A stretch of 64,000 nt of DNA from a virus. Taxonomy: Duplodnaviria; Caudoviricetes. A program made the translations under genes and the position numbers. Each line of letters starts with the position of its first letter. Position 1 is the stretch's first letter. Shown here in pieces: positions 5,380 through 37,196 of the stretch. The stretch lies in the IMG/VR virus record IMGVR_UViG_3300028833_000110, positions 31,832 through 95,831 of that record; one strand, given 5' to 3'. The notes beneath the pieces were generated by a model. The model did no database searches and was not told the DNA's origin. It worked only from the letters and a program-made list of their open reading frames with translations.

Positions 5380-5383
5380 CAAC

Positions 5384-11557: not shown

Positions 11558-11698
11558 TTATTTACCTATAAGACCCTGAATACTATCCCCCATTATTTTT
11601 TTATATTCATTACCAACCTTTTTCATCCCATCTATAAATTGTTGTTGGTGATCTTTTTCTTTCTCTTTTTCTTTAGATTTTTTACGTAGTATCTTCAT
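11558..11698 (-). CDS. 46-aa leader-family peptide (MKILRKKS...)
   Basis: Not in ORF track; ATG overlaps stop of upstream gene; carries the KILR leader. Confidence 0.55.
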   Translation of the reverse strand: MKILRKKSKEKEKEKDHQQQFIDGMKKVGNEYKKIMGDSIQGLIGK

Positions 11699-13023
11699 TT
11701 GTTACCTCCAAATTTGTTTTTTATTAGCTTAGCTCCACCTCTAGTTAATTTTCCATAAGTAGCCCACTTTGATTTGTTTATAGTGCCACTTAGATAGGTT
11801 CCCCATGCAGTCCTAAACATTTCCTTTGCTTCCTTCAAATCATTTTCACTAACTCCACAATCTGTTAATACTTGATAACCATTGTAAGAGGCTAAAAATT
11901 CAATATAGAGGAGAGGAGAACGAAGGAGGAAGTTAGATACTATTCCAACTAATTCTCCAGTATTTCCTGCTAGCCCGCAACAAAATGCAACAAAGGATAT
12001 AAATTTTGAATTAAACATATTTCTTTTTCCATTACTTTGTAGCCAAGCTTTAGTGCCACCAGCTTTATCAATCAAGTAGTGTCCAATTTCATGAGCCAAA
12101 GCAATGGGAGTATCGAGTTCTGAATAACATATAACGTGTTTATTATTGTTATATGCCCAAAGAATCCAATCTAATATTGTTCTTTTTCTTTCAGGATCTC
12201 CATGTTTTTTTATTTTATCTATCTGTTCTTTATTCCAATTTGCAGGGTTGGTATAGAATGATCCAGTACCGAGATTCACTATTATTAAATCTTGGTAATT
12301 TTTCTTTACATAATTTATAATTTTTTTATAAACAGACTCATTAAATTTCCCTTTATATGAAGTTGTTAGTTTAATAGATAATCTTTTTCCCTCTTCTTTC
12401 ATTATTTTTGCTAATCCTAAATTTAATATAGAGGGAACTAAAGTAGCAACTATGGAAAATTGTTTTTGATATAGGGCTGGTGTTTTCTCTGGATCTAAGA
12501 AAATTTTAAACTCTGATCCATAAAACAACCGTAAGAAAATTAAGAACTCAAGAAAAGCTTTATATAAACTTACCCAACCCTCTTTTCGTAGTGGGACAGT
12601 AATTATAGGCTTTGGGGGATAATTACCTATTCTAACAAACTTATATTCCCAACCACAATCCTTTTTATGATATTTAGGGAGAATTGAGGCAAGTGGTCTA
12701 TATATACTACCCTCAGGGAAAGTTATTATTCCATCATTTATATAAAGAGGAATATCAAGCTGTCTATCAAACTTCATTTTGTGATCCCAAACAGATATAA
12801 GAGATCCAGACTTATAATTTCGGTTATTTGCAGGAAAGTTAATCTCTACTTCTTTTGGGAGATCAGAAACTTTAAATGATCCCCTTTTTATGTTATTTAG
12901 TTTATCTGTAGTTGATCGCATTTCATATTTATCATATAAATCCTTTCCTGCATATAAGTAAAATTTATATATGTCTTCCTGATCAAAATCCTTGAGGCTT
13001 ATTTGTTGTCGTAGTATTTTCAT
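11695..13023 (-). CDS. Leader-family protein with C-terminal HExxH Zn-peptidase domain
   Basis: MKILRQ start, internal QKQFS, AHEIGH...IEFLAS...TAWGTY. Confidence 0.8.
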   Translation of the reverse strand: MKILRQQISLKDFDQEDIYKFYLYAGKDLYDKYEMRSTTDKLNNIKRGSFKVSDLPKEVEINFPANNRNYKSGSLISVWDHKMKFDRQLDIPLYINDGIITFPEGSIYRPLASILPKYHKKDCGWEYKFVRIGNYPPKPIITVPLRKEGWVSLYKAFLEFLIFLRLFYGSEFKIFLDPEKTPALYQKQFSIVATLVPSILNLGLAKIMKEEGKRLSIKLTTSYKGKFNESVYKKIINYVKKNYQDLIIVNLGTGSFYTNPANWNKEQIDKIKKHGDPERKRTILDWILWAYNNNKHVICYSELDTPIALAHEIGHYLIDKAGGTKAWLQSNGKRNMFNSKFISFVAFCCGLAGNTGELVGIVSNFLLRSPLLYIEFLASYNGYQVLTDCGVSENDLKEAKEMFRTAWGTYLSGTINKSKWATYGKLTRGGAKLIKNKFGGNK

Positions 13024-13029
13024 GATAAT

Positions 13030-13263
13030 TTAGTGTTTATTAGCATGGTAGGCAGCTAATATTTCCTCACACTTTTCTTTAGAATCTTCTTCACATGTCC
13101 ACCATCTAGGGGGATTAGCTTTATAGGAAATTATACTCCATTTTCCATTAGGTTTTTTCTGGATGACACCTTCTTTTCTTCCACGTTCGGCTGTTTCTTT
13201 ATCTACAATTTCTCTGTCATCCTTTTTAGAGAATTGTTTCTGTTTATTTCTTAGTATAATCAT
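13030..13263 (-). CDS. Leader-family small protein
   Basis: MIILRNKQKQFS. Confidence 0.75.
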   Translation of the reverse strand: MIILRNKQKQFSKKDDREIVDKETAERGRKEGVIQKKPNGKWSIISYKANPPRWWTCEEDSKEKCEEILAAYHANKH

Positions 13264-13313
13264 GTTTACTTAAAATTAATGAAAATAAATAGAAAGATAT
13301 TTCTATCTCTCTA

Positions 13314-13610
13314 TCATTTTATTAGAATTTCTCCAAATTCATTATCCCAACTCCCTTTATATACAGCAATTTTAGGGGAGTTAATACCAAATCCAACGTA
13401 ATATATAATACCAGTTCCTTTTGGACAAAACCAATTTGAGCTATTTTGTAGTCCTTTTATAGCCTCCTTAAGACTTGGATAATATGAAGTAGGCTTTGAT
13501 CTTCTTTCATCTACTGTATTTTCAATGTACCAGACTCCCTTACCCTCCTTCTCTAATTTAGCTATCTTTTCATTTTTAATTAATTCAATATAAATCTCTT
13601 CAGTTGTCAT
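13314..13610 (-). CDS. Hypothetical protein
   Basis: Own CCTTATA motif at 13639-13645. Confidence 0.7.
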   Translation of the reverse strand: MTTEEIYIELIKNEKIAKLEKEGKGVWYIENTVDERRSKPTSYYPSLKEAIKGLQNSSNWFCPKGTGIIYYVGFGINSPKIAVYKGSWDNEFGEILIK

Positions 13611-13652
13611 AATATTACATATGTTTATTAATTACATATATAAGGGATTAGA

Positions 13653-14186
13653 TTACTTTTCCTCAGATTCATTTTTTCTCTTTCTTCTTCTGGATATATA
13701 AGTAGTTCCTCCGGCTATAACAGCGGGAGTAGCAATAAGAGCTGCTTTTCCACCTTTAGTTTTAGCAAAATCAGAAATCTTTTTACCAGCTTTTTCTACT
13801 TTATCCGCTACTTTCTGGTATTTTTCTCCTCTAACTTCTATGTCGGTTATTCCAGGTTTATTTGTTTTTCCAGATTTCTTATTTCTAATTTTATCAGCTA
13901 TATTCTCTGACCCCTTATCGGAATTTCTAGCTCCACGATAACCAAGATAACCAGCTCCCGCACCAAGTCCTGTGGCAGCAACACCAGCACCTATTTCTTC
14001 GGCAGAGTCACTAAAATCTCTTTCGGAATCATAGGATTTATTTTCATACATTTTCTTCTCTATAATTTCTCCGGTTATGTCATTTTTTGCAGATATTATA
14101 GCAAACTTACCTTCATTATCCTCTCCTATTTCCTTAATCTCAAAAGTCATGGGAATATCGGAATAAAGTTTTCTTTTTATTTTCAT
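13653..14186 (-). CDS. Leader-family glycine-zipper protein
   Basis: MKIKRKLYS, internal ERDFS, GAGVAATGLGAGAGYLG, basic tail. Confidence 0.75.
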   Translation of the reverse strand: MKIKRKLYSDIPMTFEIKEIGEDNEGKFAIISAKNDITGEIIEKKMYENKSYDSERDFSDSAEEIGAGVAATGLGAGAGYLGYRGARNSDKGSENIADKIRNKKSGKTNKPGITDIEVRGEKYQKVADKVEKAGKKISDFAKTKGGKAALIATPAVIAGGTTYISRRRKRKNESEEK

Positions 14187-14201
14187 ATTAAATCCTTTCT
14201 T

Positions 14202-15184: not shown

Positions 15185-15194
15185 ATCTGTTTTG

Positions 15195-16023
15195 TTAATT
15201 TTTAGGTTGGATTGTATTTCTTATAGTAGTTTTTATGTTAGCTAATCCTTTATTTTTGTAAGAATCCAGGGCTAGTTTATAATTTTTCTTGGCAGTTTCT
15301 ATGTCTTTTTTAGTAGCACCTGATTTTCTCAATACCCTTAATCCTTGCTTAGACGCTCTCCCTTCCTCAGCTATAATACTACCTTCATTTATAATGTCCT
15401 GTATTACATTCTTTATCCCAGACCTCCTATGTGTTCCCATCAAACTTTTAACCATTCCATAGTTTTCATTAGAGACTGGTATTGATTCCCCGGCTTTTTT
15501 GTGTATTAACTTTATTATGGGATTTTTACTTTGGTCATTAGAAACATGGCCAATTTCATGTGAGATTTGGTCAATTCCCTGTAATCTTGGTGGAATTATT
15601 ATCTGATACTTCATCTTTCCCCTCTCTGTCGATCTTCTTAGGCCATTAACTCTCCTTCGCTTATTTTTAAATTTTTCAGTTATATCTTCTGCATTTGAAA
15701 ATCTATTTGCCACCTCATTTGTCATAACTTGTGGAAACTGTGGTTTTTTGCTAGTTTTAATATCTAGGCGGGAAATTCTAGCTCCTCTTTTTTGAGCCTC
15801 TTTATATACATTTGTTCTAACGGCTTTACTACTTGGGAGTTTTATTATCCCTTCGTTTTTCAAATTTCCTATATTATATTCTCTCGCGATTATATTCCCT
15901 TCAATCGATTTTGTCAGTTTATTTGCAAGTTTTTTTTCTTAGCTTATTTACAGAATCACCTACAATACCAAACTCTTTCTGTTGATATTCTTCTAATGTA
16001 ATTCCCTTTCGTAATATTATCAT
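15195..16023 (-). pseudogene. Leader-family HExxH Zn-peptidase, split by one extra base in A8 run (15930-15937)
   Basis: MIILRKGITLEEYQQKEFG...KLRKK then +1 frame LANKLTKS...LKNEG...SHEIGH...EEGRAS..GL..LRKSGA...LALDSY. Confidence 0.7.
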
Positions 16024-16141
16024 AATTAATAAGTTTTAAATGAATAAAATAAAATAGAAAACCTAAGTCTTCTATTTCATTTTTATTTTATTCTTAACGT
16101 AAAGTCTTCATTTGCTTAAAAATTCCCAAATCAAAATTGCC

Positions 16142-16459: not shown

Positions 16460-16462
16460 AAT

Positions 16463-16876: not shown

Positions 16877-16987
16877 AATTTTGTATTTTATTATTTGTTC
16901 CCATGTTCTGAATTAACAGATACATACTCCGAGGATAGGAATATACATGGGAAATGAACACTAATCTTAACTCCTCCTTTTTAATTT

Positions 16988-17446: not shown

Positions 17447-17851
17447 TTATCGGAGTTCTATCATTGCTCTTCCTGTTAGAACTTTTCCATCCTTGCAAAT
17501 GATACTAACAGCCATAGTTTCCTTATCCTTACAAGTACCTGTTATTAAAAAAGATTTCCACTCTCTAGGACATGCAGAAGTAGGCTCAAACTCATTGCTT
17601 AAACTCCAATATATAAAACTTTTAGAATCCGCATTTCCTTCAACTTCAAAACTTCCAGACTCTACTTTGAATGTACAGTTCTTTCCCAGGAATCGACTTT
17701 TATCTACAAAACGATCAATAGGTAAAACCCCAAAAATAGTCTCACCACCAATCTCATCTTCATATTCCTTTCCCAATTCTTTTATAGCACCCCTAAACAT
17801 TGTTTTTAGTGTATCTTTAAGAGAATAACTTTTTGTTCTTAGTATTTTCAT
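17447..17851 (-). CDS. Leader-family protein
   Basis: MKILRTKSYS. Confidence 0.75.
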   Translation of the reverse strand: MKILRTKSYSLKDTLKTMFRGAIKELGKEYEDEIGGETIFGVLPIDRFVDKSRFLGKNCTFKVESGSFEVEGNADSKSFIYWSLSNEFEPTSACPREWKSFLITGTCKDKETMAVSIICKDGKVLTGRAMIELR

Positions 17852-20163: not shown

Positions 20164-21165
20164 TTATTGAATTGGATGTATACGACTTTCATATTTACTC
20201 CAAACGGGAGTGGCAGATTTGTATGCACTTACACTCTCTGTTGGTACATAAATTGGACAACTACCTGTATTAGTAAACACATCTTCACCGAGCCCATCAT
20301 CTTCTATTGTGGGTGGATTTATTGCTTCACATACTATTGATTCTAGATTAGTACAACCAGTGAATGCACAATATCCTATTTCTGTGACTAAACTAGGTAT
20401 TCTTATTGAAGTTAAACTAGTACACCCATAACACATACTCGATGGTATTGAAGTAACAGAATTAGGGATATTAATAGAGGTTAAGTTAGTACACCCCATA
20501 AATACATCCTCCCCAAAACTAGTAACAGAATTAGGAATATTAATAGAGGTTAAACTAACACAATCCTTGAATACATCCTCCCCAAAACTAGTAACAGAAT
20601 TAGGAATATTAATAGAAGTTAAATTGGTGCACCCATGAAAAGTCTCATCATCTATTTTTGTATTAGTAATGGAATCTGGAATATTAATAGAAGTTAGTTT
20701 TTTGCAGAATCGAAAAACTCCAAAACCAATTGAAGTAACAGAATTAGGAATATTAATAGAGGTTAAATTCGAACAATATTCAAACGAACAATCACCAATA
20801 CTAGTAACAGAACTTGGAATATTAATAGAAGTTAATCTAGTACACTGAGAGAATACACTGCCTCCAATACTAGTAATGGAATCTGGAATGACAACTGAAA
20901 CTAATTCTTCATTCCAAGAAAATATTTCTGGTATTGATGTTAAAGCTTCTTTAAACTTAATAATACCTTTACCGTTATTATAGGTATTACTTTTTATTAT
21001 CTCTGATAGATCAGTAAAGTTTATTGCATTTCCACTAACACTAGTATACCAAATTTCATCATTAGGAGGTAGTATTATTTGGTTTTTTTTTGTTTTATTT
21101 AATATACTCCTAATTCTTAATAGCCAATCTTTTTCGCTATTGTTTAAATAAAGATTCTTATTCAT
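20164..21165 (-). CDS. BspA-type leucine-rich repeat protein
   Basis: About 8 C..LTSINIPNSVTSIG..F repeats. Confidence 0.9.
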   Translation of the reverse strand: MNKNLYLNNSEKDWLLRIRSILNKTKKNQIILPPNDEIWYTSVSGNAINFTDLSEIIKSNTYNNGKGIIKFKEALTSIPEIFSWNEELVSVVIPDSITSIGGSVFSQCTRLTSINIPSSVTSIGDCSFEYCSNLTSINIPNSVTSIGFGVFRFCKKLTSINIPDSITNTKIDDETFHGCTNLTSINIPNSVTSFGEDVFKDCVSLTSINIPNSVTSFGEDVFMGCTNLTSINIPNSVTSIPSSMCYGCTSLTSIRIPSLVTEIGYCAFTGCTNLESIVCEAINPPTIEDDGLGEDVFTNTGSCPIYVPTESVSAYKSATPVWSKYESRIHPIQ

Positions 21166-21343: not shown

Positions 21344-23537
21344 TTAGAACAGATTATTTAACATGCCCTGGAATATTTTTTGGGTTTCTTCTAGGGCGGA
21401 TGATGTTTGAGAGGAGAATGATTGAATAGTTTTGCTTACTCCACCATTCATTCCTAGTTCTTGATATTTAGAATAGTGATAGTAGCAATTGAAGAGAGCA
21501 CCAGAAACAGCATCAGCAAGGTCTTTACTCCCCTCTAGCTTATTCCCTTCCATTCCCGCATGATCAAACTCATAACAACTTGAAACTAAGGGGTGATCTA
21601 TTTTACAATGCTCTCCGTTAACTCCATTATAAGTCACTAATAGCTCACTACATTCTCGTAAAAGTATGTTGATATAAGGAAGCTCTAATCTTTCTGAATT
21701 TACTATATTCTTAAAGACGTTATAAGCCTCCATAGTTTTATCTACGGAAAGGGGTCTGTAGGGAATTCCATCTCTTTCAGCATTTTGTAAGATTCCGGCA
21801 CTAGCAAAAGAGTCAGCACTAAACTCGACGATATATCCATTTTTCACTAAGTCTTGTAAAAATTGATAGAGGTGGTCTAGTGATGTAGCCTGTCCCTTCT
21901 TTCTGGAAACAACAAATGCTAATGGAACTTTGAATTTGGGAAGTGTATATTCTCCTACTTGTTTTTCCCCATCATAATAACATAAAGCTATCCCAGTTTT
22001 ATCCTTCTTCAATCCTATATCATAATGTACATATAGTGAAGTGCCTCGTGGAATTCTGTAGATCATATTTTCGACATGAGAATATATACTATCTTCCTTA
22101 TCATAAAAATCGACTATAATTTCCTCGGGACTGTAATTCTTTAGGGTTGAGCAGTTTATGAGATGAGATATATTACCGTTGAAGAATCTCTCATCGCCGC
22201 TATAAGATACTCCCGCTAAGTCTCTAAGATTTCGGATTGGGTCGGCCAGGAATTTAAATTTGGCAGAGATGGGAACATTAATCACTCTGTCAGGATCTAA
22301 TCCAGATTTCTCCAGATCTTCGGAGTCTTCGATCACGCGGGGACCTGTAATATTATCTCCTTTATAGAACCTAAAAGTCTTACCATTAGACTCAAGGTAT
22401 AGTGGATCATAACGTATATCCCATTGTGCAAATCTACAGCGGTATAATTCCTCTGGGGGAACGAGAGATTCAAACTTAGTAACAGCAATATTATCCGGGT
22501 CCCTCGCTGAGCTGTCACAAACTACATGTCCATAAACAAATCTTTTATCAGCAAAACGAGAATCATAACGAGTCACAACTTCTGAAGCTCGAGCAGCCCC
22601 CTCCGAGGACCTCCAGAAGCCCAGCTCTGATAAACAGGCATATATCAAATTTCTTATTTTATAATAATTTTTTATTATATTAGACTATATCTTGTATTAA
22701 AACAGTATATACATAGTCTTTGAACTACTTTAAATTAAAGTAGCTGCTGATTTAATATATTAATTATTTCCAGCAATTCTTATACTATGAGCAAACTTTT
22801 TACTCCGATGACATGACTCCCGCTAGAAGGACCCGAGGGGATAAAACGAATGGGTGGTTTATGATAAGGACTTCTAAAATAAGGACTTGTATCAAACACT
22901 AAGTCAACATAATTTTTGAAGTCTCTTTTGGCAGTCTCGAAAGAATTGTGAAAGAAAGCCATTCCTAGTTTACTGTTCGCAATCCCAAGAGACTTAAATA
23001 CATTTGTACAGCAATCCAATCTATGGTAAGTATAGAGTGCTAGGATCTTACTGATAGTTGATTTTCCAAGTCCACAGTTTTATAATATTTCTATTATGAT
23101 AAGACTATATCTTCTTTCGTATATACACATAGTCGTTGAATAAGATACATAATTATCTTACTGCTAGTTTAAATCGGAATTTGTTTCTAGCAATTCTTAT
23201 ATAGGCCGCTGGACTTTCTGTTAACGGCACCCCCAAGAGAAATCCAGGGGTATTTTGTAGTAATTGAATTTGGATAAATCTTTTCTAATTCAGCATACCA
23301 TGGATCAAATAATGCTTTTCCATGATTAAATAAGTTATCATCTCCCATAAAATAATCATCACATATAAATCTTCTTATAGTCACTGGTTTATGATCCATC
23401 CCCAGTAATTTACACGCTGCTAATATTTTCTCCTCATTAGAAAGTTTATTATATTCAGATTCAAGTATGTTTTGGTTTATATCTGATGAAATAGAAAGAG
23501 TAGGATCATCACCTATATTTATATTACTGTTTTTCAT
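21344..23537 (-). CDS. terL: Terminase large subunit, 3 exons: 23224-23537, 22802-23074, 21344-22652 (631 aa spliced)
   Basis: Splicing restores Walker A GGAVGLGKST and HVIGVNLIYACLSE (Walker B-like); RNase H-like nuclease YVHYDIG..KD.TG, KIDHP, SKDLADAV. Confidence 0.85.
22653..22801 (-). ncRNA. Group I intron 2 in terL (149 nt)
   Basis: P AATTGCTGGAAA, Q AATCAGCAG, R GTTCAAAGACTA, S AAGATATAGTC; P1 GAGU/GCUC with U.G; terminal G; P10. Confidence 0.85.
23075..23223 (-). ncRNA. Group I intron 1 in terL (149 nt)
   Basis: P AATTGCTAGAAA, Q AAACTAGCAG, R TTCAACGACTA, S AAGATATAGTC; P1 GCCGU/GCGGC; P10 AGUCCA/UGGACU; terminal G. Confidence 0.85.
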
Positions 23538-25067: not shown

Positions 25068-25511
25068 TTACGCTTTTATTCCTTTCTTGATTAGACTTTT
25101 TGGATTAAGCTTTTTTTTCAATTTCCATTTTCTATCTTCATTCAATAGTCTTAAACCGTTATAATCATTAGAACTCTTTAGTTTATTGTACCTAGCATCA
25201 TAATTATAAGTGTTTTTTTTCACGTAATCTTTATCAAATCTTTCCTGTCTTACTCCTCTTTCTGGTGTAAACTCTATATCTCCACGATCTCGTGATCTAG
25301 CATTATGTATAGCAAGATCTTGCATATTACGCAAATCACCTCTTTTCGTCTTATTATCAATAGGCTCTCTTAGTTTATCTAAAAAACTTGAATCCACCGG
25401 CATACCCGCATTTTCGTGTTCTTTTATATCATCCTCTATAAATTCTTTAAGGTAATCTATGTTTTTCTTACCCTTCTTACGAGCAAATTCTTTTTGTCTT
25501 AGTATTATCAT
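25068..25511 (-). CDS. Leader-family basic protein
   Basis: MIILRQKEFA. Confidence 0.75.
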   Translation of the reverse strand: MIILRQKEFARKKGKKNIDYLKEFIEDDIKEHENAGMPVDSSFLDKLREPIDNKTKRGDLRNMQDLAIHNARSRDRGDIEFTPERGVRQERFDKDYVKKNTYNYDARYNKLKSSNDYNGLRLLNEDRKWKLKKKLNPKSLIKKGIKA

Positions 25512-25681: not shown

Positions 25682-26179
25682 TCATAGCCTCTCAATTTCT
25701 TTACATATTTTTTTAGCTAAGTCTCTTTGGTTTCCAGGTTCAAAATCTTCTGGGGAAAAATATCCCTTCATTATTTCTTTAGGGTCTACTTTTTCAAACT
25801 TCTTTATAAATAATCCCTTCTTCACATACCACTCTTTTCCTGATACATCACACCATAATTTAGCGGCGATCTCAGAATATCCAAATTCCTCTGCTGTATC
25901 TAAGTTATCATAGAAAAGGCACACATATTCTTTCCCATCCTTTTCTTCTGTATATGGTCCCTCAGGAAACTTTTCTGGTTCGAATACAATGGCAGCATGT
26001 ATTAATTCTTCTTCTTCCGTAAGTTCTGAAAATTCTTTGATAAGGGGATTAATTTTATCTAGGAACTCAACATAAAGGGAAGGGTAATTCAAGGCTTTAA
26101 GTTTTTTTATCTCATCATTCCCAACTACAATTCCAGTATGATGTCTCCAAGCAAACTCTTTTTGTCGTAGTATCTTCAT
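25682..26179 (-). CDS. Leader-family acidic protein
   Basis: MKILRQKEFA. Confidence 0.75.
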   Translation of the reverse strand: MKILRQKEFAWRHHTGIVVGNDEIKKLKALNYPSLYVEFLDKINPLIKEFSELTEEEELIHAAIVFEPEKFPEGPYTEEKDGKEYVCLFYDNLDTAEEFGYSEIAAKLWCDVSGKEWYVKKGLFIKKFEKVDPKEIMKGYFSPEDFEPGNQRDLAKKICKEIERL

Positions 26180-26484
26180 AGCTTTAATTTTTTAGTTTGT
26201 CTCTTTATCATCTCTTCTTCCTGCCGGTTGAAGGTGTCTGTATTCGCTAGTCTTTGTTCTGGAGTTAGTTTTTCTGTATTCTTTCCTGCCCCTAATATAT
26301 TAACTCTTGCCTTTCCCACATTTTTAGCTCTTCTCGCCTGTCTTCTTCTTTTTCTTTCTATCTTTCCCTCAAGAGCATCAGTAACCCTAGCTCGTTCAAG
26401 ATCGCTTAATTCACTTCCCTTTTTATGAATAAACCTGGAAATAGCTTCATGATAAGAGTAATTATTTTGTCTCAGTATTTTCAT
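26176..26484 (-). CDS. Leader-family basic protein
   Basis: MKILRQNNYS. Confidence 0.7.
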   Translation of the reverse strand: MKILRQNNYSYHEAISRFIHKKGSELSDLERARVTDALEGKIERKRRRQARRAKNVGKARVNILGAGKNTEKLTPEQRLANTDTFNRQEEEMIKRQTKKLKL

Positions 26485-26911
26485 TATCTCTACTCCTTCT
26501 TTTTTTCTTAGTTATTTTATCGTAAGCTATTCCTCCAGCTGTGGCTCCAATAACAGTAGCTGGTAAAATAAACTTTGATCTATGTTTAAGAACTGCGTTT
26601 TTTCCAGCCTCTTTACTTTTACTTATTGCCTCTTTTTCATACATTTTTTTCAGTTGTTCTACTTGAGAAATTGAATCTTTATCTGTTAACTCTTGTGCCA
26701 ACCCTATATTTTTTTTTATTCGTTCTAGTCTATCGTTTAAATCTTTATTGTAGTTCTTATTAAATACTTCATCTTTTCCTTTCTCAGATAAAGCATAACC
26801 ACCAACAGCACCAATTCCAGCACCGACAGCCGAAGAACTAGCTATTCCAATTTTATTAGCTAGACCCTTCTTTTCTTTTTTCTGCTCTTGTTCTTTTCTC
26901 TTTATTTTCAT
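26462..26911 (-). CDS. Leader-family glycine-zipper protein
   Basis: MKIKRK; two hydrophobic Gly-rich segments; basic tail. Confidence 0.7.
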   Translation of the reverse strand: MKIKRKEQEQKKEKKGLANKIGIASSSAVGAGIGAVGGYALSEKGKDEVFNKNYNKDLNDRLERIKKNIGLAQELTDKDSISQVEQLKKMYEKEAISKSKEAGKNAVLKHRSKFILPATVIGATAGGIAYDKITKKKRRSRDNENTETK

Positions 26912-27994: not shown

Positions 27995-28603
27995 TTATTT
28001 CTTTTTACCATATTTTTTAGCATACTCTTCTTCAGACATATCACCCTCAACAACTTTAATCATGTCTCTATTCTTTTCAAATCTCTTAGCTGCCTTTGAG
28101 TTGGGATGTTTCTCTACATGGTTGCTCTCAAGATGAGCAATACCACCCCCAAGTCCAGCGGCTCCGGCACCTATAGCAGTACCAATAGCGGCTGACTTCA
28201 ATCGGCTATTACTAGGGAATCTTGTCACACCTCCATAAAGCCCCAATGTAGCAGCACTAGCGGGAAGGTGACGTTTCATTTGTTCGTTGATCCCTTCTTT
28301 TCTCACATCAGGATCCTCACTATTACGTTTTTTATAAGAATCGTAGGTAAAATATCCAGTGTGTCCTTTTTGATGTGATTTATCCCAAGATTTGATTTCC
28401 TGTCTATCTCCCCATTTTACTCCCAACTCCTTAAGTCTTTTATCTCTTTCTTTTCTCCTTTTCCTATCTTCTTTACCAAACTCCTTTTGTGCATATTCAT
28501 AGCCATCACAAAAAGCTCTTTCAAGTAATTCATCTAATTCATCATTACCAGTACTATATAATCTTTCTTCCTGATAATTACTGTATAATCTTTCTATTTT
28601 CAT
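27995..28603 (-). CDS. Leader-family protein, paralog of 35367..35831
   Basis: MKIERLYSNYQEERLYS...AQKEFG then Gly-zipper payload. Confidence 0.8.
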   Translation of the reverse strand: MKIERLYSNYQEERLYSTGNDELDELLERAFCDGYEYAQKEFGKEDRKRRKERDKRLKELGVKWGDRQEIKSWDKSHQKGHTGYFTYDSYKKRNSEDPDVRKEGINEQMKRHLPASAATLGLYGGVTRFPSNSRLKSAAIGTAIGAGAAGLGGGIAHLESNHVEKHPNSKAAKRFEKNRDMIKVVEGDMSEEEYAKKYGKKK

Positions 28604-28691: not shown

Positions 28692-29705
28692 TTAGTTATT
28701 TTTATTTTGCTCTTCCATCACTTTTTTCAGAGCTTCATTTTCTCTCTTTTTTCTTTTTGCAGCTAATCTTTTATAAGCTACCTTTGTTCCTATAGAAGTA
28801 GCTGCAAGTGGGATGGCTGCGGCGGCTATTTTTGGACCATTCTTCAGGTGTTTTAGATATTTAATCTCAGATTTCGGAAGTTCCCCTTCATAATACTTCA
28901 GGGCTTCTTTACTCATCTTCTGAGCTTTTTCACTCATCTTATCTCGATAATTCTCGAATTCTTTTGAGGTCCATTTTTCCATAAGATCTTCAGTACTTAT
29001 TTTGGGATAACGCTCTTTCAATATCTCTTTTTCTGATTTTATTATATTTCGGACAGGAATAACAGCAGAACCTATGGCTCCTATTTTTGTTCCATACGAA
29101 ATCCCACGTAAAGCCTTTTCCTTTTTTTCTTCCTTATCGTAATTATAATTATTATCTTTCTCTTTTTTCGAATTTGTTAGCTTCTTAAGACCTCCATAAA
29201 TAGTACCGGCGGCTAATGAACCTATGGCTAAATTTTTCCTAAACTTTTTATTGGATTTTAATTTATCCTCTAATTTCTTCTTTTCTTTCTCAACTATTTC
29301 TCCAGTTTTTTGTTTCCCAGTTCTGTACTTAGATAAGGCCTCGTCTTTTATTCTTTTTATTTCCTCATTTTCTACTTTGGTATCACCACCATTAGATTTT
29401 ATTTTTGAGGACTTTAAAAAATCTGTAACGCTATCTGGTAGATCTCCAGTCATTATTCGTGCCTCTTGAATTTTAGCTCTTCGATGTGGTATAAGTTTTT
29501 CTTTGACATATTCATCAAAGTTATCTTTCGCTCGTTTTACTTTTTCATTAGAGACTTTTTTGCTCTTACGGTCATCTATGCGACTAATTGCTTGAGATGT
29601 CCCAATTCCACTAAGAGCTACAACTCCACCACCAATAAGAGCTGATCTGTCTTTCTTATCTTTCTTTTCTTTATCAGAAAAGCTTTTAGTTCTTAGTATT
29701 TTCAT
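28692..29705 (-). CDS. Leader-family lysine-rich protein with 4 hydrophobic segments
   Basis: Start reassigned to MKILRTKSFS. Confidence 0.75.
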   Translation of the reverse strand: MKILRTKSFSDKEKKDKKDRSALIGGGVVALSGIGTSQAISRIDDRKSKKVSNEKVKRAKDNFDEYVKEKLIPHRRAKIQEARIMTGDLPDSVTDFLKSSKIKSNGGDTKVENEEIKRIKDEALSKYRTGKQKTGEIVEKEKKKLEDKLKSNKKFRKNLAIGSLAAGTIYGGLKKLTNSKKEKDNNYNYDKEEKKEKALRGISYGTKIGAIGSAVIPVRNIIKSEKEILKERYPKISTEDLMEKWTSKEFENYRDKMSEKAQKMSKEALKYYEGELPKSEIKYLKHLKNGPKIAAAAIPLAATSIGTKVAYKRLAAKRKKRENEALKKVMEEQNKNN

Positions 29706-29721: not shown

Positions 29722-30534
29722 TTATGCACCCTGAGTTAAGTGTCTGGTACTAGTTCCTCCGGGAAGGGCTATTCTTCTGGAAGCTCTTGCTAGTGTATTG
29801 GCCCTACTAACATGTTTATAGGAACCCAAAGATGTTTTATAAAATCTTTTCGCATCCCTCAGTTCCTCTCTACTAGCTCCAGATCTCCTTAATAGTTTGA
29901 GACCTTTTCTTGATGCATTACCTTCTTCTAATATTGTTAACAGACTTTTTGGAATAGATCTCTCTCCTACTGGAGTCATATTATGATAAAGAGTACCTTC
30001 ATTCATTGTATTTCTCGATATTCTCCCCGATAAACCAGGACGATTACTCATGGCCCTATTACTATTCAAAGCATGCCCCGACTCATGAGCAACTACAGCA
30101 GCTGGGGGATTCACAGGGACAAGTATAGTATTCTTTCTATTTTTTGAATTAGTAGCTAATTTATTCTTTACTTCCTCAGGTATTGTAGGATTATTTTGAA
30201 AAAACTCTACAAACGTATTAGCCTGTTTAGGGCTATAAAAGGATCCACCACCAGTTAATTCGGGGGTTTTAACAATATCTATGTTATTATTTTTTGCGAA
30301 ATCCTCTAATTTTCCTAGTACTTTAGTATTGGTTGGTGTTTCATTATACCAGGTATTACTTAAATATGTTTTCTGCATTCCCTTATTGGCCTGATTTTCT
30401 GCAGACTTTCTTAGTCGATTAGAAACATTTACTCTAGTTCGACCTATATTTTTCCTTAAAGTCCTCTTTATTCCTGAATGTTTAATATCGCTTATAATAT
30501 TAAACTCTTTCTGTTTTTGTCGTAGTATTTTCAT
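29722..30534 (-). CDS. Leader-family HExxH Zn-peptidase
   Basis: MKILRQKQKEFN; AHESGH...EEGNASRKGL.LLRRSGA...SLGSY. Confidence 0.8.
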   Translation of the reverse strand: MKILRQKQKEFNIISDIKHSGIKRTLRKNIGRTRVNVSNRLRKSAENQANKGMQKTYLSNTWYNETPTNTKVLGKLEDFAKNNNIDIVKTPELTGGGSFYSPKQANTFVEFFQNNPTIPEEVKNKLATNSKNRKNTILVPVNPPAAVVAHESGHALNSNRAMSNRPGLSGRISRNTMNEGTLYHNMTPVGERSIPKSLLTILEEGNASRKGLKLLRRSGASREELRDAKRFYKTSLGSYKHVSRANTLARASRRIALPGGTSTRHLTQGA

Positions 30535-31199
30535 TAGTTTATTTTTTGTAGTTCGTATCTTTGTGTTTTTATTAACAGTTCTACTTCTTTTATCCCCCTT
30601 GTATCACCCTCTTTTTGTAAGACATTTATGGTCTCGATGTTCTCTGATTCCATAGTTTTTATAAGTTCGGGTTTAAGTTGAGACCAGCTATTGAATTTTT
30701 TATTTCCCCTTCCAAATATAAAATATTTCTTTTCTAAGTTCCAAGAAACTTCACAATATCCTTGAGGATCACTAAATAATGTTACTATATTAGACTCCCT
30801 ATATTCAACTATATCTTTTGGGGTACTTGGATAAAGAACTACATACTCATCGCCATCGCCCCAAGTAGGAACCTTTACCTTCTTAAATGCTTCTACCCAT
30901 TTAAAGTACTGAGGTGGTAATTGTGGTTTAATGTTTTCGAATTCTAATAATATTTCTCCACTCTTTCTATTAGCTTCTTTATTCAGGGCTTGTTGTTTTC
31001 TATTTTTACTAATTCCATAATATGCTCCTAATCCAGCTCCAGCAACAGCACCAATTCCAGCACCTATTAATGCTTTCTTTGGATTACCACCTATAGCACC
31101 AGTACCTATTCCTCCAAGAAATCCTCCTACAAGGGCACCATCCCTTACTTCCTTTAATACCTCTTTAGTACTATATTCTTTTTGTCGTAATATTTTCAT
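30534..31199 (-). CDS. Leader-family glycine-zipper protein
   Basis: MKILRQKEYS; GALVGGFLGGIGTGAIGG...GAGIGAVAGAGLG. Confidence 0.8.
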   Translation of the reverse strand: MKILRQKEYSTKEVLKEVRDGALVGGFLGGIGTGAIGGNPKKALIGAGIGAVAGAGLGAYYGISKNRKQQALNKEANRKSGEILLEFENIKPQLPPQYFKWVEAFKKVKVPTWGDGDEYVVLYPSTPKDIVEYRESNIVTLFSDPQGYCEVSWNLEKKYFIFGRGNKKFNSWSQLKPELIKTMESENIETINVLQKEGDTRGIKEVELLIKTQRYELQKIN

Positions 31200-31738: not shown

Positions 31739-31765
31739 ATTAATTGTTTGTTTTATTTTTGTTTA

Positions 31766-31972
31766 TTAAAAGTGTAGTGGTTTTCTTATTAGTTTTGTCG
31801 AAGCTCTTTTAATATTTAATTTAGGCATCTTCGACTCTATAAAACTATCTGTTTGCTTGCTAAAATTTAGTTTAGCCTGTAATTGTTTTTCTGACCAATG
31901 CGGATATTTCTTTTTATAGTATTCATAGTCAGATGCGTCAATACTATAGTTTTTTTCTCTAATTATTTTCAT
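31766..31972 (-). CDS. Leader-family small protein
   Basis: MKIIREKNYS. Confidence 0.7.
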   Translation of the reverse strand: MKIIREKNYSIDASDYEYYKKKYPHWSEKQLQAKLNFSKQTDSFIESKMPKLNIKRASTKLIRKPLHF

Positions 31973-31975
31973 AGT

Positions 31976-33004
31976 TTATTTTCTACTTTTTTTATAAATA
32001 GGGAATTTATTATACATATCATAATTAATATCTCTAACCCCAGCATTTAGGTAGGTTTGAAAGGCATCATTTAAATACCCTTCACCTCTTTCTGCATAAG
32101 TTGGTGTTATCTCCCCTTTCTTAACCGCTAAATTATGAATAGCATTGGCCTGTGAACTAGCATAATTTTCCTCAGCTAATTTTCTAATATCACCAGAAAA
32201 CTCTAGTCCAGTCGATAGCCCCTTTTTGGATGAAATAGCATGCCCAACCTCATGACCCAATACATATGGGTGAGCACCTGGCTTTACAGTAATTATGTCA
32301 TCATAGGTGTTATAACTATTACGATTTCCACTTTCGATTTGAGTTTTTGGTGTTACTCTACTAAGTTTTTTAAACACAGAGTTCATAGAATTCATTGGCT
32401 CTGAACCAGGAATGAAATCTTTATCTTTCATTGGATCTATATTATCTAATCGTTGACCGGCTTCTTCGTACCCACTCAGTGAACTATTATAAACCTTACT
32501 CGCAGATTTTGGTGCCCTTCTCTTAACAAATGGAGCCAACTCAGTATTTTTTTGATCCTCCAGTTTCCTCGACATTGCTTCAAGTCTATCAATATTACGA
32601 GGAGAATAATTAATTCCATAATGCCAATTTAATTCTCCGACTTTTTCCTGTTTAGTATCATACTTATTTTTTATTTGATTCACTTCCCGATTATGAATTC
32701 TTTGAAATCGTTTTTGAAATTCTGAGTCATATATATTACGATATTTCTGAATTAGGTGTTTTATACCTTTTCCAGATTCAGGCAATCCCATTCTCTCAAG
32801 GACCTGTCTAGCTTCATCATAATTAATACCTTCAAGATCCCCATAATCTATTTTTCGAGCAATATCATTAATTCTATATACATCCCTAGCATTCATTCCC
32901 TTCTTGCCTTTCGGAAGATGTTTAAGTCCTCCTGTAGCTTTATAAAATTCAAGAAATGCTTTTTTATCTTGGAATGTAAATAGTTTCTGTCGTAGTATTT
33001 TCAT
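31976..33004 (-). CDS. Leader-family HExxH Zn-peptidase
   Basis: MKILRQKLFT; GHEVGH...EENYAS...DAFQTY; N-terminal ~100 aa shared with next ORF. Confidence 0.8.
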   Translation of the reverse strand: MKILRQKLFTFQDKKAFLEFYKATGGLKHLPKGKKGMNARDVYRINDIARKIDYGDLEGINYDEARQVLERMGLPESGKGIKHLIQKYRNIYDSEFQKRFQRIHNREVNQIKNKYDTKQEKVGELNWHYGINYSPRNIDRLEAMSRKLEDQKNTELAPFVKRRAPKSASKVYNSSLSGYEEAGQRLDNIDPMKDKDFIPGSEPMNSMNSVFKKLSRVTPKTQIESGNRNSYNTYDDIITVKPGAHPYVLGHEVGHAISSKKGLSTGLEFSGDIRKLAEENYASSQANAIHNLAVKKGEITPTYAERGEGYLNDAFQTYLNAGVRDINYDMYNKFPIYKKSRK

Positions 33005-33993
33005 TTTCTTACTGCTTTTTTGATTCCACCAAAAAGTTTATTGGCACCACCACGTGTATATGTCGCTAATGCTGAATCTAAGGATTTTCGTGCCTTTCTC
33101 TCTACTCCTGGACGTATTTCTCCCCTTTTTACTCCGCTTCTTAATCTAGCTAATGCTCTAGAGGATGCCATATTTTCTTCTGCAATTTCAGATAGCGCAT
33201 CATTAGCATCAGTGGCTCTAAATCCGGGATCAAATCCTCTCTTATAATTTTGCTGATGTCCCCATTCATGTAAAAAAACAGATGGATTATAAGAAGAAAC
33301 ATAGATTTGATCTGGAAACATAGAATTAAAGTAGTTTTGTCCAGGTTTCGGGATAACAGTGAACACATTATCTTTCTCTAATACGTTAGCTATAAACTTT
33401 GTAGTCCTTGGTCCTCCAATACCTCTTTTTTTATACTTTCTTTCAACCCTATTATTTTGTGATTCAAAACGTTTTCCGGCATTGAGGAGGATATTTTCTT
33501 TTCCTTCAAAAAGAGGGTGTGATGGTTTATAGGTTTTATTAAGCCTATCTAAATTCCTATCAATCAATGTGTCGTATTTTTTATAAACCTCATATGGATT
33601 ACTAGATACATAGGCCTCTCTATCAGCTCTAGTAGATAATTTTTTATTTAGGTTCATATTTTTTCTGAATGAATCTCCAGACATAATATTTTCATACCTA
33701 TCCTGAAATTCTGGATCCTGTATCAACTTATATTTATGACTAAGGTGTTCTAATCCTTTTGCTGTCTCTGGAAGGTCAATATGTTCAAAAACCTTCTTTG
33801 CCTCATTCCAATTTACTTCATTAATTCTCCCCTGATCTACTAACTCCGCCCACTTTTTAAACCTATATACATCCCTAGCATTCATTTTACCTCGTCCATT
33901 GGGTAAAGTGGTGAAATTATTAGTTGCAGCCTTCAGTTCTTCCCAAGCTTTTTTATCTTGGAATGTAAATAGTTTTTGTCGTAATATTTTCAT
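33001..33993 (-). CDS. Leader-family HExxH Zn-peptidase
   Basis: MKILRQKLFT; LHEWGH...EENMASSRAL...SALATY. Confidence 0.8.
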   Translation of the reverse strand: MKILRQKLFTFQDKKAWEELKAATNNFTTLPNGRGKMNARDVYRFKKWAELVDQGRINEVNWNEAKKVFEHIDLPETAKGLEHLSHKYKLIQDPEFQDRYENIMSGDSFRKNMNLNKKLSTRADREAYVSSNPYEVYKKYDTLIDRNLDRLNKTYKPSHPLFEGKENILLNAGKRFESQNNRVERKYKKRGIGGPRTTKFIANVLEKDNVFTVIPKPGQNYFNSMFPDQIYVSSYNPSVFLHEWGHQQNYKRGFDPGFRATDANDALSEIAEENMASSRALARLRSGVKRGEIRPGVERKARKSLDSALATYTRGGANKLFGGIKKAVRK

Positions 33994-34685: not shown

Positions 34686-34700
34686 ACCATATTTTATTTT

Positions 34701-35174
34701 TTACTTTAATTTTAGCTTCATTAATTTCAGTGAGTCTTCATCATGATATTTAATTATCTCACCTGTATATTTAAATCCTAATTTCTCATAAATGTGTTGT
34801 GCTCGTTTATTTTCTACTGGTACTTCAAGTGTAATCCACTTATACTTTAATTCTCTTAGGTATTTTATTATAGCCATCAGTGCTTTTGTCCCATATCCAT
34901 TATTTTGATATTCATTATCAACAAAGAACCACGGAATATTAATTTCTTCGTTAGATTCTTTATTTAACATTATGTAACCAATGTTTTTTGAAGATAGCAT
35001 AATATCATATATAACACACAGGCCCTGTTGTTCTTTAATTCTTTTTGATAACTTCCCTAAGATTTTAGATATAATAGTTGGTTTAGTTTTTACTAAACTT
35101 AAGTTATCCCCAAGGTCTATTAGATTAATAGACTCTGACTTAAATGAATAGAGTTTTTGTCTTAATATAATCAT
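34701..35174 (-). CDS. Leader-family GNAT acetyltransferase
   Basis: MIILRQKLYS; V..EYQNNGYG, N.RA..IYEKLGF. Confidence 0.85.
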   Translation of the reverse strand: MIILRQKLYSFKSESINLIDLGDNLSLVKTKPTIISKILGKLSKRIKEQQGLCVIYDIMLSSKNIGYIMLNKESNEEINIPWFFVDNEYQNNGYGTKALMAIIKYLRELKYKWITLEVPVENKRAQHIYEKLGFKYTGEIIKYHDEDSLKLMKLKLK

Positions 35175-35313
35175 TTTAATTCCTCCTTTTTAATATTTCT
35201 CAGGATTTCTCTTTTCTTTCCAAACCCAGTCCAATAATCCCTTTTATACATTACAGGGACATGCTTAATCTCCTTTCCTCATTGTCGAAAGGATTTATTT
35301 AATTTTACTTAGC

Positions 35314-35358
35314 TCCCAGAGTGTAATTGAATACTACATCTATTTCAATGCTCTGGGA
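35314..35358. repeat. Conserved hairpin element B, copy 3
   Basis: TCCCAGAG/CTCTGGGA enclosing GTGTAATTGAATACTAC. Confidence 0.65.
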
Positions 35359-35366
35359 AAAAATTT

Positions 35367-35831
35367 TTATTCTTGTTCTTTTCTCCTTCTTCTCTTTTCT
35401 AATTTTACTGCTCTAGATGCTCTACCATGACCAATAGCTTGCTTACCATGAATTCCAGTCTTCATATATTCAGCAGCGGCAAGGGTACCTAATGCAACAC
35501 GACCAGCTTTTGATTTCGCCAATTTTCCGGTAGCATTCTTATCGTGAAGGGTTTTGGTTAGTCCTCCAGCAATAGAAGCATCAATACCTCCTGCAACACT
35601 ATGACCTACAGACTTTTTAAAATTATCCCAACCTAGTTTATTTAATTCTTCATCACTGAGGTTTTTTAATTCGTCTTTAAATTCTTTCATGGATTTCTTA
35701 GCAAATTCTCTTTGTGCATATTCATAACCCTCACAAAAAGCTCTCTCAAGGAGATCATCAAGTTCATCATTACCAGTACTATATAATCTTTCCTCTTCCT
35801 GATAATTACTGTATAATCTTTCTATTTTCAT
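35367..35831 (-). CDS. Leader-family protein, paralog of 27995..28603
   Basis: Near-identical first 43 aa ending AQREFA, unrelated payload afterwards. Confidence 0.8.
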   Translation of the reverse strand: MKIERLYSNYQEEERLYSTGNDELDDLLERAFCEGYEYAQREFAKKSMKEFKDELKNLSDEELNKLGWDNFKKSVGHSVAGGIDASIAGGLTKTLHDKNATGKLAKSKAGRVALGTLAAAEYMKTGIHGKQAIGHGRASRAVKLEKRRRRKEQE

Positions 35832-35843
35832 TTATTTCTCGTT

Positions 35844-35911
35844 GCTATAGGAGAAATTGTTTTTATCTTATCACCCCCCCCCTATAGCTCTGTTTTTAAG
35901 GAAGGATGATA
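35844..35911 (-). promoter_or_regulatory. H-type RNA pseudoknot element, copy 4
   Basis: UAUCAUCCUUC/GGGGGGUGAUA with GCUAUAGG/CCUAUAGC; ends 12 nt before ATG. Confidence 0.6.
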
Positions 35912-35916
35912 TTGTT

Positions 35917-36747
35917 TTATTCTTGTTCTTTTCTCTTTCTAGATAATTTACCAGTAATTTTTCCTGCCACTCTTCCAACACCAGTCATAGCAATCTGAGC
36001 CGCTGGACGAATTGCATAGGATCCAAGAGCATACGCCAGAGACTTTCTACTTCCTCTTAGTTGCGCTTTTGAGGCTCCAGCGTTTTTCATCAACCTTAAA
36101 CCCCTTCTACTTGCATCAGCCTCTTCAATTAATACTGGAGCATTTATTGCAGCCACTGGAACATATGCTCCAACTTTTTTTATTGTAGAATTGTCGTCAT
36201 TTTTTGTTTGATTATAACCCGAGGCAAATCCACTAGCCAAACCAATTGCACCTGTATTTTTTAGTAATTTTGAATACCTTAATCTCCCTTGTAGATCATT
36301 AAATAAAGAACCCCTAGCAGCTCTTTCTGCATGACCTAGTTCATGTGCTAATGTAGAAGTATCTTTCAAATTATTAAGTTTTACCGTACCAGCGGCGTTA
36401 TTTGGGTCCTTAATCCAGTCTTGATCAATTATTTTTCCACTTACTTTTACTTTTTTACCTTGTTTAATTGATTTTTTGATTCTATTTATATCCCTCTTAG
36501 ATATATATCCCCCAAAGGCTTCACCCCCTCGTGCAAACTTTCTCGGATTAACTTGAATCTCACTTACCACATTTTTATAATTAGGAACTTTTTTAAATTC
36601 CTCTATTACTTTTCGTGATAAGTCTACATTCCCACTCCCCTCTCTCGCTTCAATATGCTTCTTAAATAGAAAGGAATTAATTGGGTCAGTTATCTTTTTA
36701 CGAGGGGGGGGGTTATCGTTAAATAATTTTTGTCTTAGTATTTTCAT
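35917..36747 (-). CDS. Leader-family HExxH Zn-peptidase
   Basis: MKILRQKLFN; AHELGH...EEADASRRGL.LMK.AGA...ALGSY. Confidence 0.8.
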   Translation of the reverse strand: MKILRQKLFNDNPPPRKKITDPINSFLFKKHIEAREGSGNVDLSRKVIEEFKKVPNYKNVVSEIQVNPRKFARGGEAFGGYISKRDINRIKKSIKQGKKVKVSGKIIDQDWIKDPNNAAGTVKLNNLKDTSTLAHELGHAERAARGSLFNDLQGRLRYSKLLKNTGAIGLASGFASGYNQTKNDDNSTIKKVGAYVPVAAINAPVLIEEADASRRGLRLMKNAGASKAQLRGSRKSLAYALGSYAIRPAAQIAMTGVGRVAGKITGKLSRKRKEQE

Positions 36748-36749
36748 CT

Positions 36750-37196
36750 TTATTTGTATTTAATATTTTCTTCATACCAACGCCACCTATATAATTTTGC
36801 ATTGGTTTGTCTTGGGCCGTATTTATAAGTTTCCTCGCCCTTCTTCACTATCTTAACTTCCCCTAATTTTTCAAGACGTATATTCCCAGTATACCAATAT
36901 TCTCGGATTAAAAAAGAATAAGGAACCTCATTTATATTCATCGGCCCTAAAAGATTATCCCCCTTAATCCCTAAAGCTCTATATATATAAATTTTTGTTC
37001 CTTTTCTAAAATTCTCCCCAAGGTATAAGCCTGAAATTGCCTCCTCTATAGTTCTATAAAGTCGGATTCTTTTCATCTTATAATCAATGTACTTCCCTCT
37101 TGTTAGGAAATTTACTGGTATATCTGGTTTTATTATCTCTTTCTCTAAATTTGGAAGAGTTGAGACATAATAAAATACATTTCTTTTTATTATCAT
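36750..37196 (-). CDS. Leader-family protein, possible ADP-ribosyltransferase-like fold
   Basis: MIIKRNVFY; FYYVS...P.IP...RI.L..TIE.AI...VP....EYW pattern. Confidence 0.55.
   Translation of the reverse strand: MIIKRNVFYYVSTLPNLEKEIIKPDIPVNFLTRGKYIDYKMKRIRLYRTIEEAISGLYLGENFRKGTKIYIYRALGIKGDNLLGPMNINEVPYSFLIREYWYTGNIRLEKLGEVKIVKKGEETYKYGPRQTNAKLYRWRWYEENIKYK

Follow-up and report, generated by a model that had tools for sequence, protein, structure and literature searches.

A series of minus-strand genes in the IMG/VR virus record IMGVR_UViG_3300028833_000110 raises the question of why proteins with different bodies should all begin with the same short peptide. The stretch analysed (64,000 nucleotides, hereafter the window) comprises bases 31832-95831 of this linear virus record of 95,831 bp and approximately 31% GC, and the genes concerned lie between window positions 11558 and 37196. 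We consider it likely that their common N-terminus (hereafter the tag) is a T4-type capsid-targeting and processing label, with a predicted aromatic rather than Glu specificity of cleavage, so that by analogy with T4 the tagged proteins would be packaged, cleaved and injected. The tag and its distribution, the fold of the protease, the enrichment of the cut motif and the clade-wide conservation were computed here.

All 21 minus-strand starts listed in an earlier note on this DNA were found at their coordinates, each reading M-[KI]-I-[LKEI]-R, and the claim that most continue into an aromatic core was borne out, with 16 of the 21 (13263, 14186, 17851, 25511, 26179, 26484, 28603, 29705, 30534, 31199, 31972, 33004, 33993, 35174, 35831 and 36747) reaching an aromatic plus a small residue by residue 12. 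The commonest form is M-K-I-L-R-Q-K-x-[FY]-[SAT]. The internal repeats of the core were likewise as described (QKQFS at residue 186 in the protein starting at 13023; ERDFS at residue 55 in that starting at 14186; ERLYS twice, and QKEFG, in that starting at 28603). The tagged genes of the window, all on the minus strand (-), are given below with lengths in amino acids (aa) and a slash at the predicted cut:

11558-11698 (-), basic open reading frame (ORF) of 46 aa, MKILRKKSKEKE; tag head only, aromatic core absent
11695-13023 (-), 442-aa HExxH protein (HEIGH at 311), MKILRQQISLKDFD; tag head with a non-canonical core
13030-13263 (-), 77-aa protein, MIILRNKQKQF/S
13653-14186 (-), 177-aa protein, MKIKRKLY/S
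15195-16023 (-), frameshifted sixth HExxH peptidase gene; tagged 34-aa 5′ ORF at 15919-16023, MIILRKG...QKEFG
15195-15863 (-), body of the frameshifted HExxH gene, a 222-aa ORF in the other frame, HEIGH
17447-17851 (-), 134-aa protein, MKILRTKSY/S
25068-25511 (-), 147-aa basic protein, MIILRQKEF/A
25682-26179 (-), 165-aa protein, MKILRQKEF/A; further KEFS at 48
26176-26484 (-), 102-aa basic protein, MKILRQNNY/S
26462-26911 (-), 149-aa basic protein with a weak Gly-zipper match, MKIKRKEQEQ; tag head only
27995-28603 (-), 202-aa member of the ERLYSTGNDELDELLERA family, MKIERLY/S and a second ERLY/S at 13-17
28692-29705 (-), 337-aa basic protein, MKILRTKSF/S
29722-30534 (-), 270-aa HExxH (HESGH) protein, MKILRQKQKEF/N
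30534-31199 (-), 221-aa protein with weak Gly-zipper matches, MKILRQKEY/S
31766-31972 (-), 68-aa basic protein, MKIIREKNY/S
31976-33004 (-), 342-aa HExxH (HEVGH) protein, MKILRQKLF/T
33001-33993 (-), 330-aa HExxH (HEWGH) paralogue, MKILRQKLF/T
34701-35174 (-), 157-aa GNAT acetyltransferase, MIILRQKLY/S
35367-35831 (-), 154-aa member of the ERLYSTGNDELD family, MKIERLY/S and a second ERLY/S
35917-36747 (-), 276-aa HExxH (HELGH) protein, MKILRQKLF/N; Zn_peptidase_2 E 5e-6, 26.6 bits
36750-37196 (-), 148-aa basic protein, MIIKRNVFYY; variant tag

The start at 16023 had been counted as a gene in its own right; the start itself is confirmed, but the 34-aa ORF (QKEFG at residues 15-19) appears to be the 5′ end of the frameshifted HExxH gene at 15195-16023, which could be a pseudogene, a sequencing error or a case of programmed frameshifting. 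The RNVFYY variant of the ORF starting at 37196 occurs as MLIKRNVYFS in a relative.

The tagged ORFs nearly always start at the first ATG past the upstream stop, 0-27 codons away. Within the tag, Leu4 is encoded by CTA, TTA or CTG and Arg5 by AGA, CGA or CGT, and the mean pairwise identity among tagged genes is 0.66 over their first 27 nucleotides vs 0.37 over the 30 nucleotides upstream. As the tagged genes differ in their synonymous codons and share no DNA similarity upstream, selection acts on the peptide and not on the DNA, and a DNA-level repeat or promoter was rejected for the same reasons. A six-frame scan of the 95.8-kb record recovered the head motif at these starts and at other starts of minus-strand genes within the 31.8 kb that precede the window, the sole other match being antisense within tRNA-Glu at 5344; [KR]x[FY][SAT] occurs at residues 4-13 of 25 of 150 ORFs (2.2 expected), and on these two results a chance origin was rejected. 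The tag is absent from all 56 ORFs of the plus strand. Approximately 13 additional tagged genes lie at positions 235-17389 of L001, the part of the record that directly precedes the window, bringing the fragment to about 34; the earlier statement that no such start exists outside the region therefore holds within the window but not for the record as a whole.

The capsid protein of the record (described below) identified 79 related IMG/VR loci at 62-81% identity, many of them on contigs of 350-400 kb, and two of these relatives are rated complete with terminal repeats (400,901 bp and 353,025 bp). In the complete 353-kb relative (G002), all of the approximately 30 tagged genes fall at 251.6-293.8 kb, in one 43-kb structural block that they share with the candidate portal, a terL-like gene, the protease, scaffold, capsid, tail and baseplate genes. 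Even a loose form of the tag pattern was concentrated there (16 of 47 ORFs at 255-295 kb vs 4 of 446 elsewhere, those four being unconvincing). Across relatives the consensus is M-[IK]-[IKV]-[LF]-R-Q-K-x-[FY]/[STGA], and MKILRQKLFSFK is a peptide of this type, a predicted substrate of the protease. Among 76 distinct N-termini from the record, G002 and 12 related loci, positions left free in the search pattern were still conserved (I/K at 2, I/K/V at 3, F/L at 4, Q at 6 and K at 7), and the residue after the aromatic was always S, T, G, A or N. Between orthologues the tag is retained even where the rest of the protein has diverged: the 330-aa HExxH protein (33001-33993) has 13 database homologues, every one of which has MKILRQKLFTFQDKKA, down to 31% overall identity, and the GNAT homologue in G002 retains a tag of the form MFILRIKEFT.

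The tag comes in two flavours. M-I-x-F-R (Phe4) is found on conserved genes just after the capsid gene (L001 235-4442), and M-K/I-I-L-R (Leu4) on the variable genes at window 11558-37196; the Phe4/Leu4 split persists in relatives.

On the minus strand of L001 a candidate portal of 576 aa is followed by six small tagged proteins and an HNH endonuclease, then by proteins of 437 aa, 255 aa, 737 aa (very acidic; isoelectric point (pI) 4.1, 30% Asp+Glu) and 488 aa, and finally by more tagged genes. This order mirrors that of T4 genes 20, 67/68, 21, 22 and 23 (portal, core, protease, scaffold and capsid). Two of these genes are:

L001:17386-19116 (-), candidate portal, 576 aa, with ..QKIFGS near its start
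L001:10984-12297 (-), protease, 437 aa, with an AlphaFold2 (AF2) fold match to T4 gp21

The 437-aa protein is probably a prohead protease of the gp21/assemblin fold, as judged from its predicted structure. Its AF2 model, built on 34 homologues, has a mean predicted local distance difference test (pLDDT) score of 76, and residues 1-176 matched T4 gp21 (5jbl) in Foldseek with a probability of 1.0 (E 6e-3) and by VIA with a Z score of 10.3 (root-mean-square deviation 2.7, 134 residues aligned). Herpesvirus assemblins came next after 5jbl (Z 7-8), and among the matches listed there was no other fold for the protease domain. His49, His89 and Ser141 are invariant in the protease alignment. The sole local hhalign match to T4 gp21, which is not significant alone, places His49 on T4 His85 within G-x-L-x-H-x-x-R, at an offset that agrees with the structural alignment; His85 of T4 gp21 is presumably catalytic. 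Hidden Markov model (HMM) searches of PHROGs and Pfam and sequence and profile searches of the PDB with the 437-aa protein were empty. More broadly, PHROGs and Pfam searches of the record and G002 gave nothing for the protease, scaffold, capsid protein, TerL pieces and most payloads, and sub-threshold matches only for the candidate portal.

The core of the tag recurs abundantly in the products of this head module. Scoring [KR]-x-[FY]-[SAT] against expectations from shuffled sequences, we counted 15 sites in the 737-aa acidic protein (0.44 expected), seven in the 255-aa protein (0.45 expected) and five in the protease (0.81 expected), the last all within a disordered linker (residues 200-285) that precedes a helical C-terminal domain. 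The K-x-F-S columns of this linker are invariant in the 34 homologues. Cut computationally at all of its sites, the 737-aa protein falls into 16 pieces of 9-144 residues, and from their sequences this protein and the 255-aa protein are predicted to be scaffold-like and shredded by the protease. Prohead proteases treat scaffolds in this way. Non-structural proteins were at or below chance for the motif (9 vs 13.6 expected on the plus strand; 14 vs 14.0 for the other minus-strand proteins), so that the possibility raised in the earlier note, of a motif equally frequent among unrelated genes, found no support here or in G002, where no convincing tag lies outside the structural block.

The 488-aa protein groups with PF07068 Gp23 clusters (Atlas feature score 0.97-0.99, structural template-modelling (TM) score 0.83), and its only tblastn match, over 86 residues (E 5e-4), was to a protein of two Escherichia phages annotated as a putative major capsid protein. 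It carries two sites, KMFS at residues 35-38 (AKMFS) and QKTFS at residues 57-61, both kept in 32 of 32 distinct relatives, and the conserved part of its alignment starts directly after the second. In the candidate portal, [QE]-K-[IL]-F-G-S at residues 11-16 is conserved in three lineages, which suggests that a short N-terminal peptide may be removed from this protein as well.

An exhaustive profile search of 1.8 billion representatives placed the protease family in 244 clusters. All full-length members inspected (to E ~1e-30) have three to six [KR]x[FY]S sites past the protease domain, and many begin M..K.[KR][LI]FS. Next to the gene of one distant relative, the adjoining genes begin MTKTFS and MRTKTFS; the cut core is thus family-wide and the M-x-I-[LF]-R-Q-K extension specific to the clade. 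The M..K.[KR][LI]FS starts (P0134-P0149, L008:5001-5459) are likely a self-removed peptide and recall the nine N-terminal residues that T4 gp21 cleaves from itself, which activates it (PMC9958956); the protease of the present record starts MDVKVRCCPLGQ, without such a peptide. The helical C-terminal domain (profile positions ~270-430) recurs in proteins of 250-730 aa of distant relatives (P0222-P0264) in which the protease domain is missing but the cut motif is present, an arrangement that recalls the shared protease/scaffold C-termini of herpesviruses and lambda.

From these elements a course of head maturation can be proposed. The tagged proteins would co-assemble with the acidic scaffold in the prohead core, to which the protease would be tethered via its C-terminal domain before being activated. 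The gp21-fold serine protease would then cut [KR]-x-[FY]/[small], removing the 9-residue tag from the cargo; the same enzyme would shred the scaffold, free itself from its C-terminal domain and trim approximately 60 residues off the gp23-like capsid protein. Tags and scaffold fragments would leave, and the mature basic proteins would be left with the DNA and would probably pass into the cell alongside it. The cut is drawn after the aromatic and before the small residue because the position that follows the aromatic is limited to S, T, G, A or N and because assemblins cut before Ser.

The closest known counterpart is the internal protein system of T4, where IPII and IPIII both begin with the capsid-targeting sequence (CTS) MKTYQEFIAE. 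T-even internal proteins are diverse except for the conserved CTS, which also loads foreign proteins into the capsid (PMC3012670, PMC9958956), and the substrates of gp21 are IPI-III, Alt, gp67, gp68, gp22, gp23 and gp24. Both systems have a leader of about 10 residues on diverse proteins, ending at a prohead-protease motif (PMC9958956, PMC3012670); both combine a gp21-fold protease, a many-site scaffold and a capsid protein that loses its N-terminus (65 residues in T4 gp23, PMC9958956; about 60 predicted here), together with basic cargo and the order portal, core, protease, scaffold, capsid. The differences are equally clear. The tag sequences have no likeness; the predicted cut follows an aromatic, with a basic P3 and a small P1′, unlike the [LI]-x-Glu of T4; about 34 genes are tagged in a quarter-genome fragment vs a handful in T4; and the protease has a 150-residue helical C-terminal domain behind its site-rich linker. 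A gp21-type Glu motif ([LIVA/S/G]-x-E) was not what we found enriched, the enriched motif being [KR]-x-[FY]-[SAT], and because of this difference from the Glu type the system appears to work like that of T4 while sharing neither its tag nor its specificity. The kind of system is therefore a known one, and what differs is the tag sequence, the predicted aromatic-P1 specificity and the scale (about 34 genes per quarter genome). Nothing relevant emerged from the literature, which was searched for the tag strings and for prohead proteases with an aromatic P1.

Among other jumbo phages, phiKZ, 201phi2-1 and SPN3US resemble the present system in having a gp21-type protease (gp175/gp245) that autocleaves its C-terminus, propeptides on many head-internal or ejection proteins, and cargo in paralogue families (PMC5694885, PMC10052503). 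Their proteases, unlike the specificity predicted here, cut at S/A/G-x-Glu, and their propeptides are mostly longer than 100 residues with no single common tag, in contrast to the one 9-residue consensus reused here. The herpesvirus assemblins share the protease fold (Z 7-8), the tether to a scaffold-like C-terminal part and the release by self-cleavage. They have Ser at P1′, as is predicted here, but Ala rather than an aromatic at P1, and no cargo-tag system.

The role in packaging or processing first proposed for the tag is thus supported by the gp21-fold protease, by the motif in its linker, in the scaffold-like proteins and at the capsid protein N-terminus, by the co-occurrence of the motif with this protease family in distant relatives, and by the confinement of tags to the structural block of G002. 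Several points weigh against a T4-type label of aromatic specificity. All characterised gp21-type proteases (T4, phiKZ, 201phi2-1 and SPN3US) cut after Glu, so that an aromatic P1 would be unprecedented in this family (PMC5694885). The hhalign comparisons of the protease with T4 gp21 and of the capsid protein with gp23 were not significant, and for this reason the protease assignment rests on the predicted fold; the AF2 model of the 488-aa capsid protein was poor (pLDDT 51) and was not used for a fold search. Five of the 21 starts (11698, 13023, 16023, 26911 and 37196) keep the M-x-I-x-R head with no canonical core at that place, and some tagged genes lie among tail and baseplate rather than head genes. 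That the tag is cleaved, where the scissile bond lies and that the proteins are packaged are themselves predictions.

The best-surviving alternative, which we nevertheless regard as unlikely, is that the tag is a processing site and nothing more: the core would be cut, the cargo would enter the prohead by means of its own bodies, and M-x-I-[LF]-R would serve for recognition at P5-P8. It is indeed the cut motif, and not the upstream half, that the tag has in common with the scaffold, the linker of the protease and the capsid protein; leaders are much shorter in the distant relatives (MTKTFS and MRTKTFS), and some internal sites also have a hydrophobic and basic pattern upstream (e.g. TFTLKRKLF/A and TRFMTRVF/S). 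Many scaffold sites, however, such as DEDEKEF/S and ELDSKNF/S, lack the I-L-R half, which would make that half unnecessary for site recognition, and the five genes that keep M-K-I-x-R without a canonical cut core point the same way; for both reasons we assign to M-x-I-[LF]-R a putative role in targeting. The T4 CTS, which matches the tag in size and position and is a targeting signal sufficient for packaging (PMC9958956), argues further for such a role. Under processing without targeting, each of approximately 25 unrelated payload families would need its own way into the prohead, and the loss of exactly nine residues would make little sense unless these had acted beforehand.

It is very improbable that the shared start is a feature of translation initiation or of the mRNA, or else the relic of a single diverged gene family. 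The leader codons are A-rich (ATG AAA ATA ... AAA), the host phylum makes little use of Shine-Dalgarno sites, and two of the payload families are true paralogues, all of which would suit this explanation. Against these stand the variable codons of Arg5 (AGA and CGA/CGT) and Leu4 (CTA, TTA and CTG), and a conserved end of aromatic plus Ser that has no mRNA rationale and is nevertheless repeated 15 times in the scaffold; GNAT and HExxH proteins cannot have common ancestry, and the start is not shared by early, plus-strand or metabolic genes of this genome.

In Staphylococcus phage 80alpha the capsid and scaffold proteins mimic the N-terminal extension of ribosomal L27 and are cut after Phe by the host cysteine protease Prp, so that a short leader is lost after Phe and before Ala or Ser; only these two proteins are tagged there. 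Removal of the present leader by Prp, or by some other host or non-prohead protease, is more improbable still. There is a superficial likeness (a short leader with a hydrophobic and basic pattern, ending in Phe before Ala or Ser). The explanation is disfavoured since Peptidase_Prp (PF04327) was found in Bacillus, Lactococcus and Thermotoga controls but not in Bacteroides thetaiotaomicron, this record (G000) or the two complete relatives (G001 and G002), since the relatives are predicted to infect Bacteroides/Phocaeicola (PMC12880540), and since the phage has its own gp21-fold protease with the motif invariant in its linker.

If the T4-type reading with aromatic specificity is true, the protease would represent a new specificity class (aromatic P1, basic P3) of the gp21/assemblin family, the phage members of which are so far known to cut after Glu, and the tag would offer a very short peptide with which proteins of choice could be loaded into capsids of Bacteroides phages, a use to which the T4 CTS has been put.

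With the first 12 residues removed, the payloads fall into approximately 25 unrelated sequence families, including two paralogue families, one made up of the five HExxH proteins and the other of five or six members with an acidic ..ERLYSTGNDELDELLERA.. start. The inventory comprises five intact HExxH peptidase-like proteins and the frameshifted copy, one GNAT, Gly-zipper proteins and many orphans. The GNAT assignment made in the earlier note was confirmed for 34701-35174 (Pfam E 1e-14). Its zinc peptidases have the HExxH motif, but their Zn_peptidase_2 matches are weak, the best (26.6 bits) lying below the 27-bit cut-off; its Gly-zipper proteins do give matches, all of them under the Pfam cut-offs; and an ART-like payload had to be abandoned, as the HMM searches gave no ADP-ribosyltransferase signal. 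The 337-aa protein (28692-29705) has as an Atlas structural neighbour a T7 gp14-like internal virion protein (TM 0.37/0.64), which we take as a lead only. Members of the five- to six-member family (window 27995-28603 and 35367-35831; L001 13987-15935) have a double ERLYS/EKLYS start followed by an acidic STGNDELDELLERA and then diverge, and the 40 nucleotides upstream of the starts at 28603 and 35831 are identical.

The tagged proteins are mostly small and strikingly basic, with a median pI of 9.6 vs 6.0 among the other proteins of the record (Mann-Whitney p = 1e-8). This would fit a location with the packaged DNA, as in T4, where the internal proteins contact DNA via lysines (PMC3012670). Many tagged genes of the window have no homologue in G002, so that the set of cargo turns over between relatives.

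A fuller version of the T4-type reading can be put forward tentatively, as something possible rather than probable. The nine residues would form a portable two-part code in which M-x-I-[LF]-R docks to the prohead core and K-x-[FY]/S is cut by a gp21-type protease that has switched from Glu to aromatic specificity; this code would belong to the jumbo phages prevalent in the human gut and would bring at least thirty basic effectors into Bacteroides together with the DNA, including a zinc peptidase family, an acetyltransferase and membrane proteins of the glycine-zipper type, from a cargo that turns over fast between relatives.

The 95.8-kb record is a fragment of an uncultured jumbo gut phage, with a CheckV completeness of 24%, and blastn against cultured phages gave no match to it. 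The record and its relatives fit the description of the Jug phages, whose predicted hosts are Bacteroides/Phocaeicola (PMC12880540). The likeness lies in features described there (gut phages of 360-402 kb with an intron-split terL): complete relatives of 353-401 kb with terminal repeats, an origin in gut metagenomes, low GC, and a terL split by small introns together with HNH genes in the relatives or the record, alongside the capsid protein relatives at 62-81% identity that include the complete 353- and 401-kb records. The Jug prohead protease is listed as fragmented and/or highly divergent, and the text of that paper contains neither 'N-terminal' nor 'leader' nor any protease cleavage motif (PMC12880540).

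The neighbouring genes of the region had been said to include terL, a baseplate gene and an endolysin. The endolysin is secure (phrog_1224, E 1e-69) and the match to a baseplate hub is weak (phrog_150, E 1e-4). For terL there was no HMM match, but ORFs of 434 aa and 116 aa at window 21344-24831 (-) both match a single intact 621-aa ORF beside the protease in G002. Between the two lie gaps and a gene for an HNH endonuclease (23524-24831), which fits the intron-split terL of the Jug phages.

One further occurrence of the core, KLYS at residues 6-9, was rejected as a tag and attributed to chance, the G002 homologue being without the motif:

61552-62580 (-), IMPDH/GMP-reductase family enzyme (Pfam E 2e-28)

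The plus strand has a cluster of tRNA genes at window 3986-5456, seven in number (Met, Ser, Gln, Cys, Pro, Glu and Asn). Amid the structural genes, at window 20164-21165 (-), lies a gene for a 333-aa BspA-type leucine-rich-repeat protein (Pfam LRR_5, E 1e-65), which may be a receptor-binding or surface protein.

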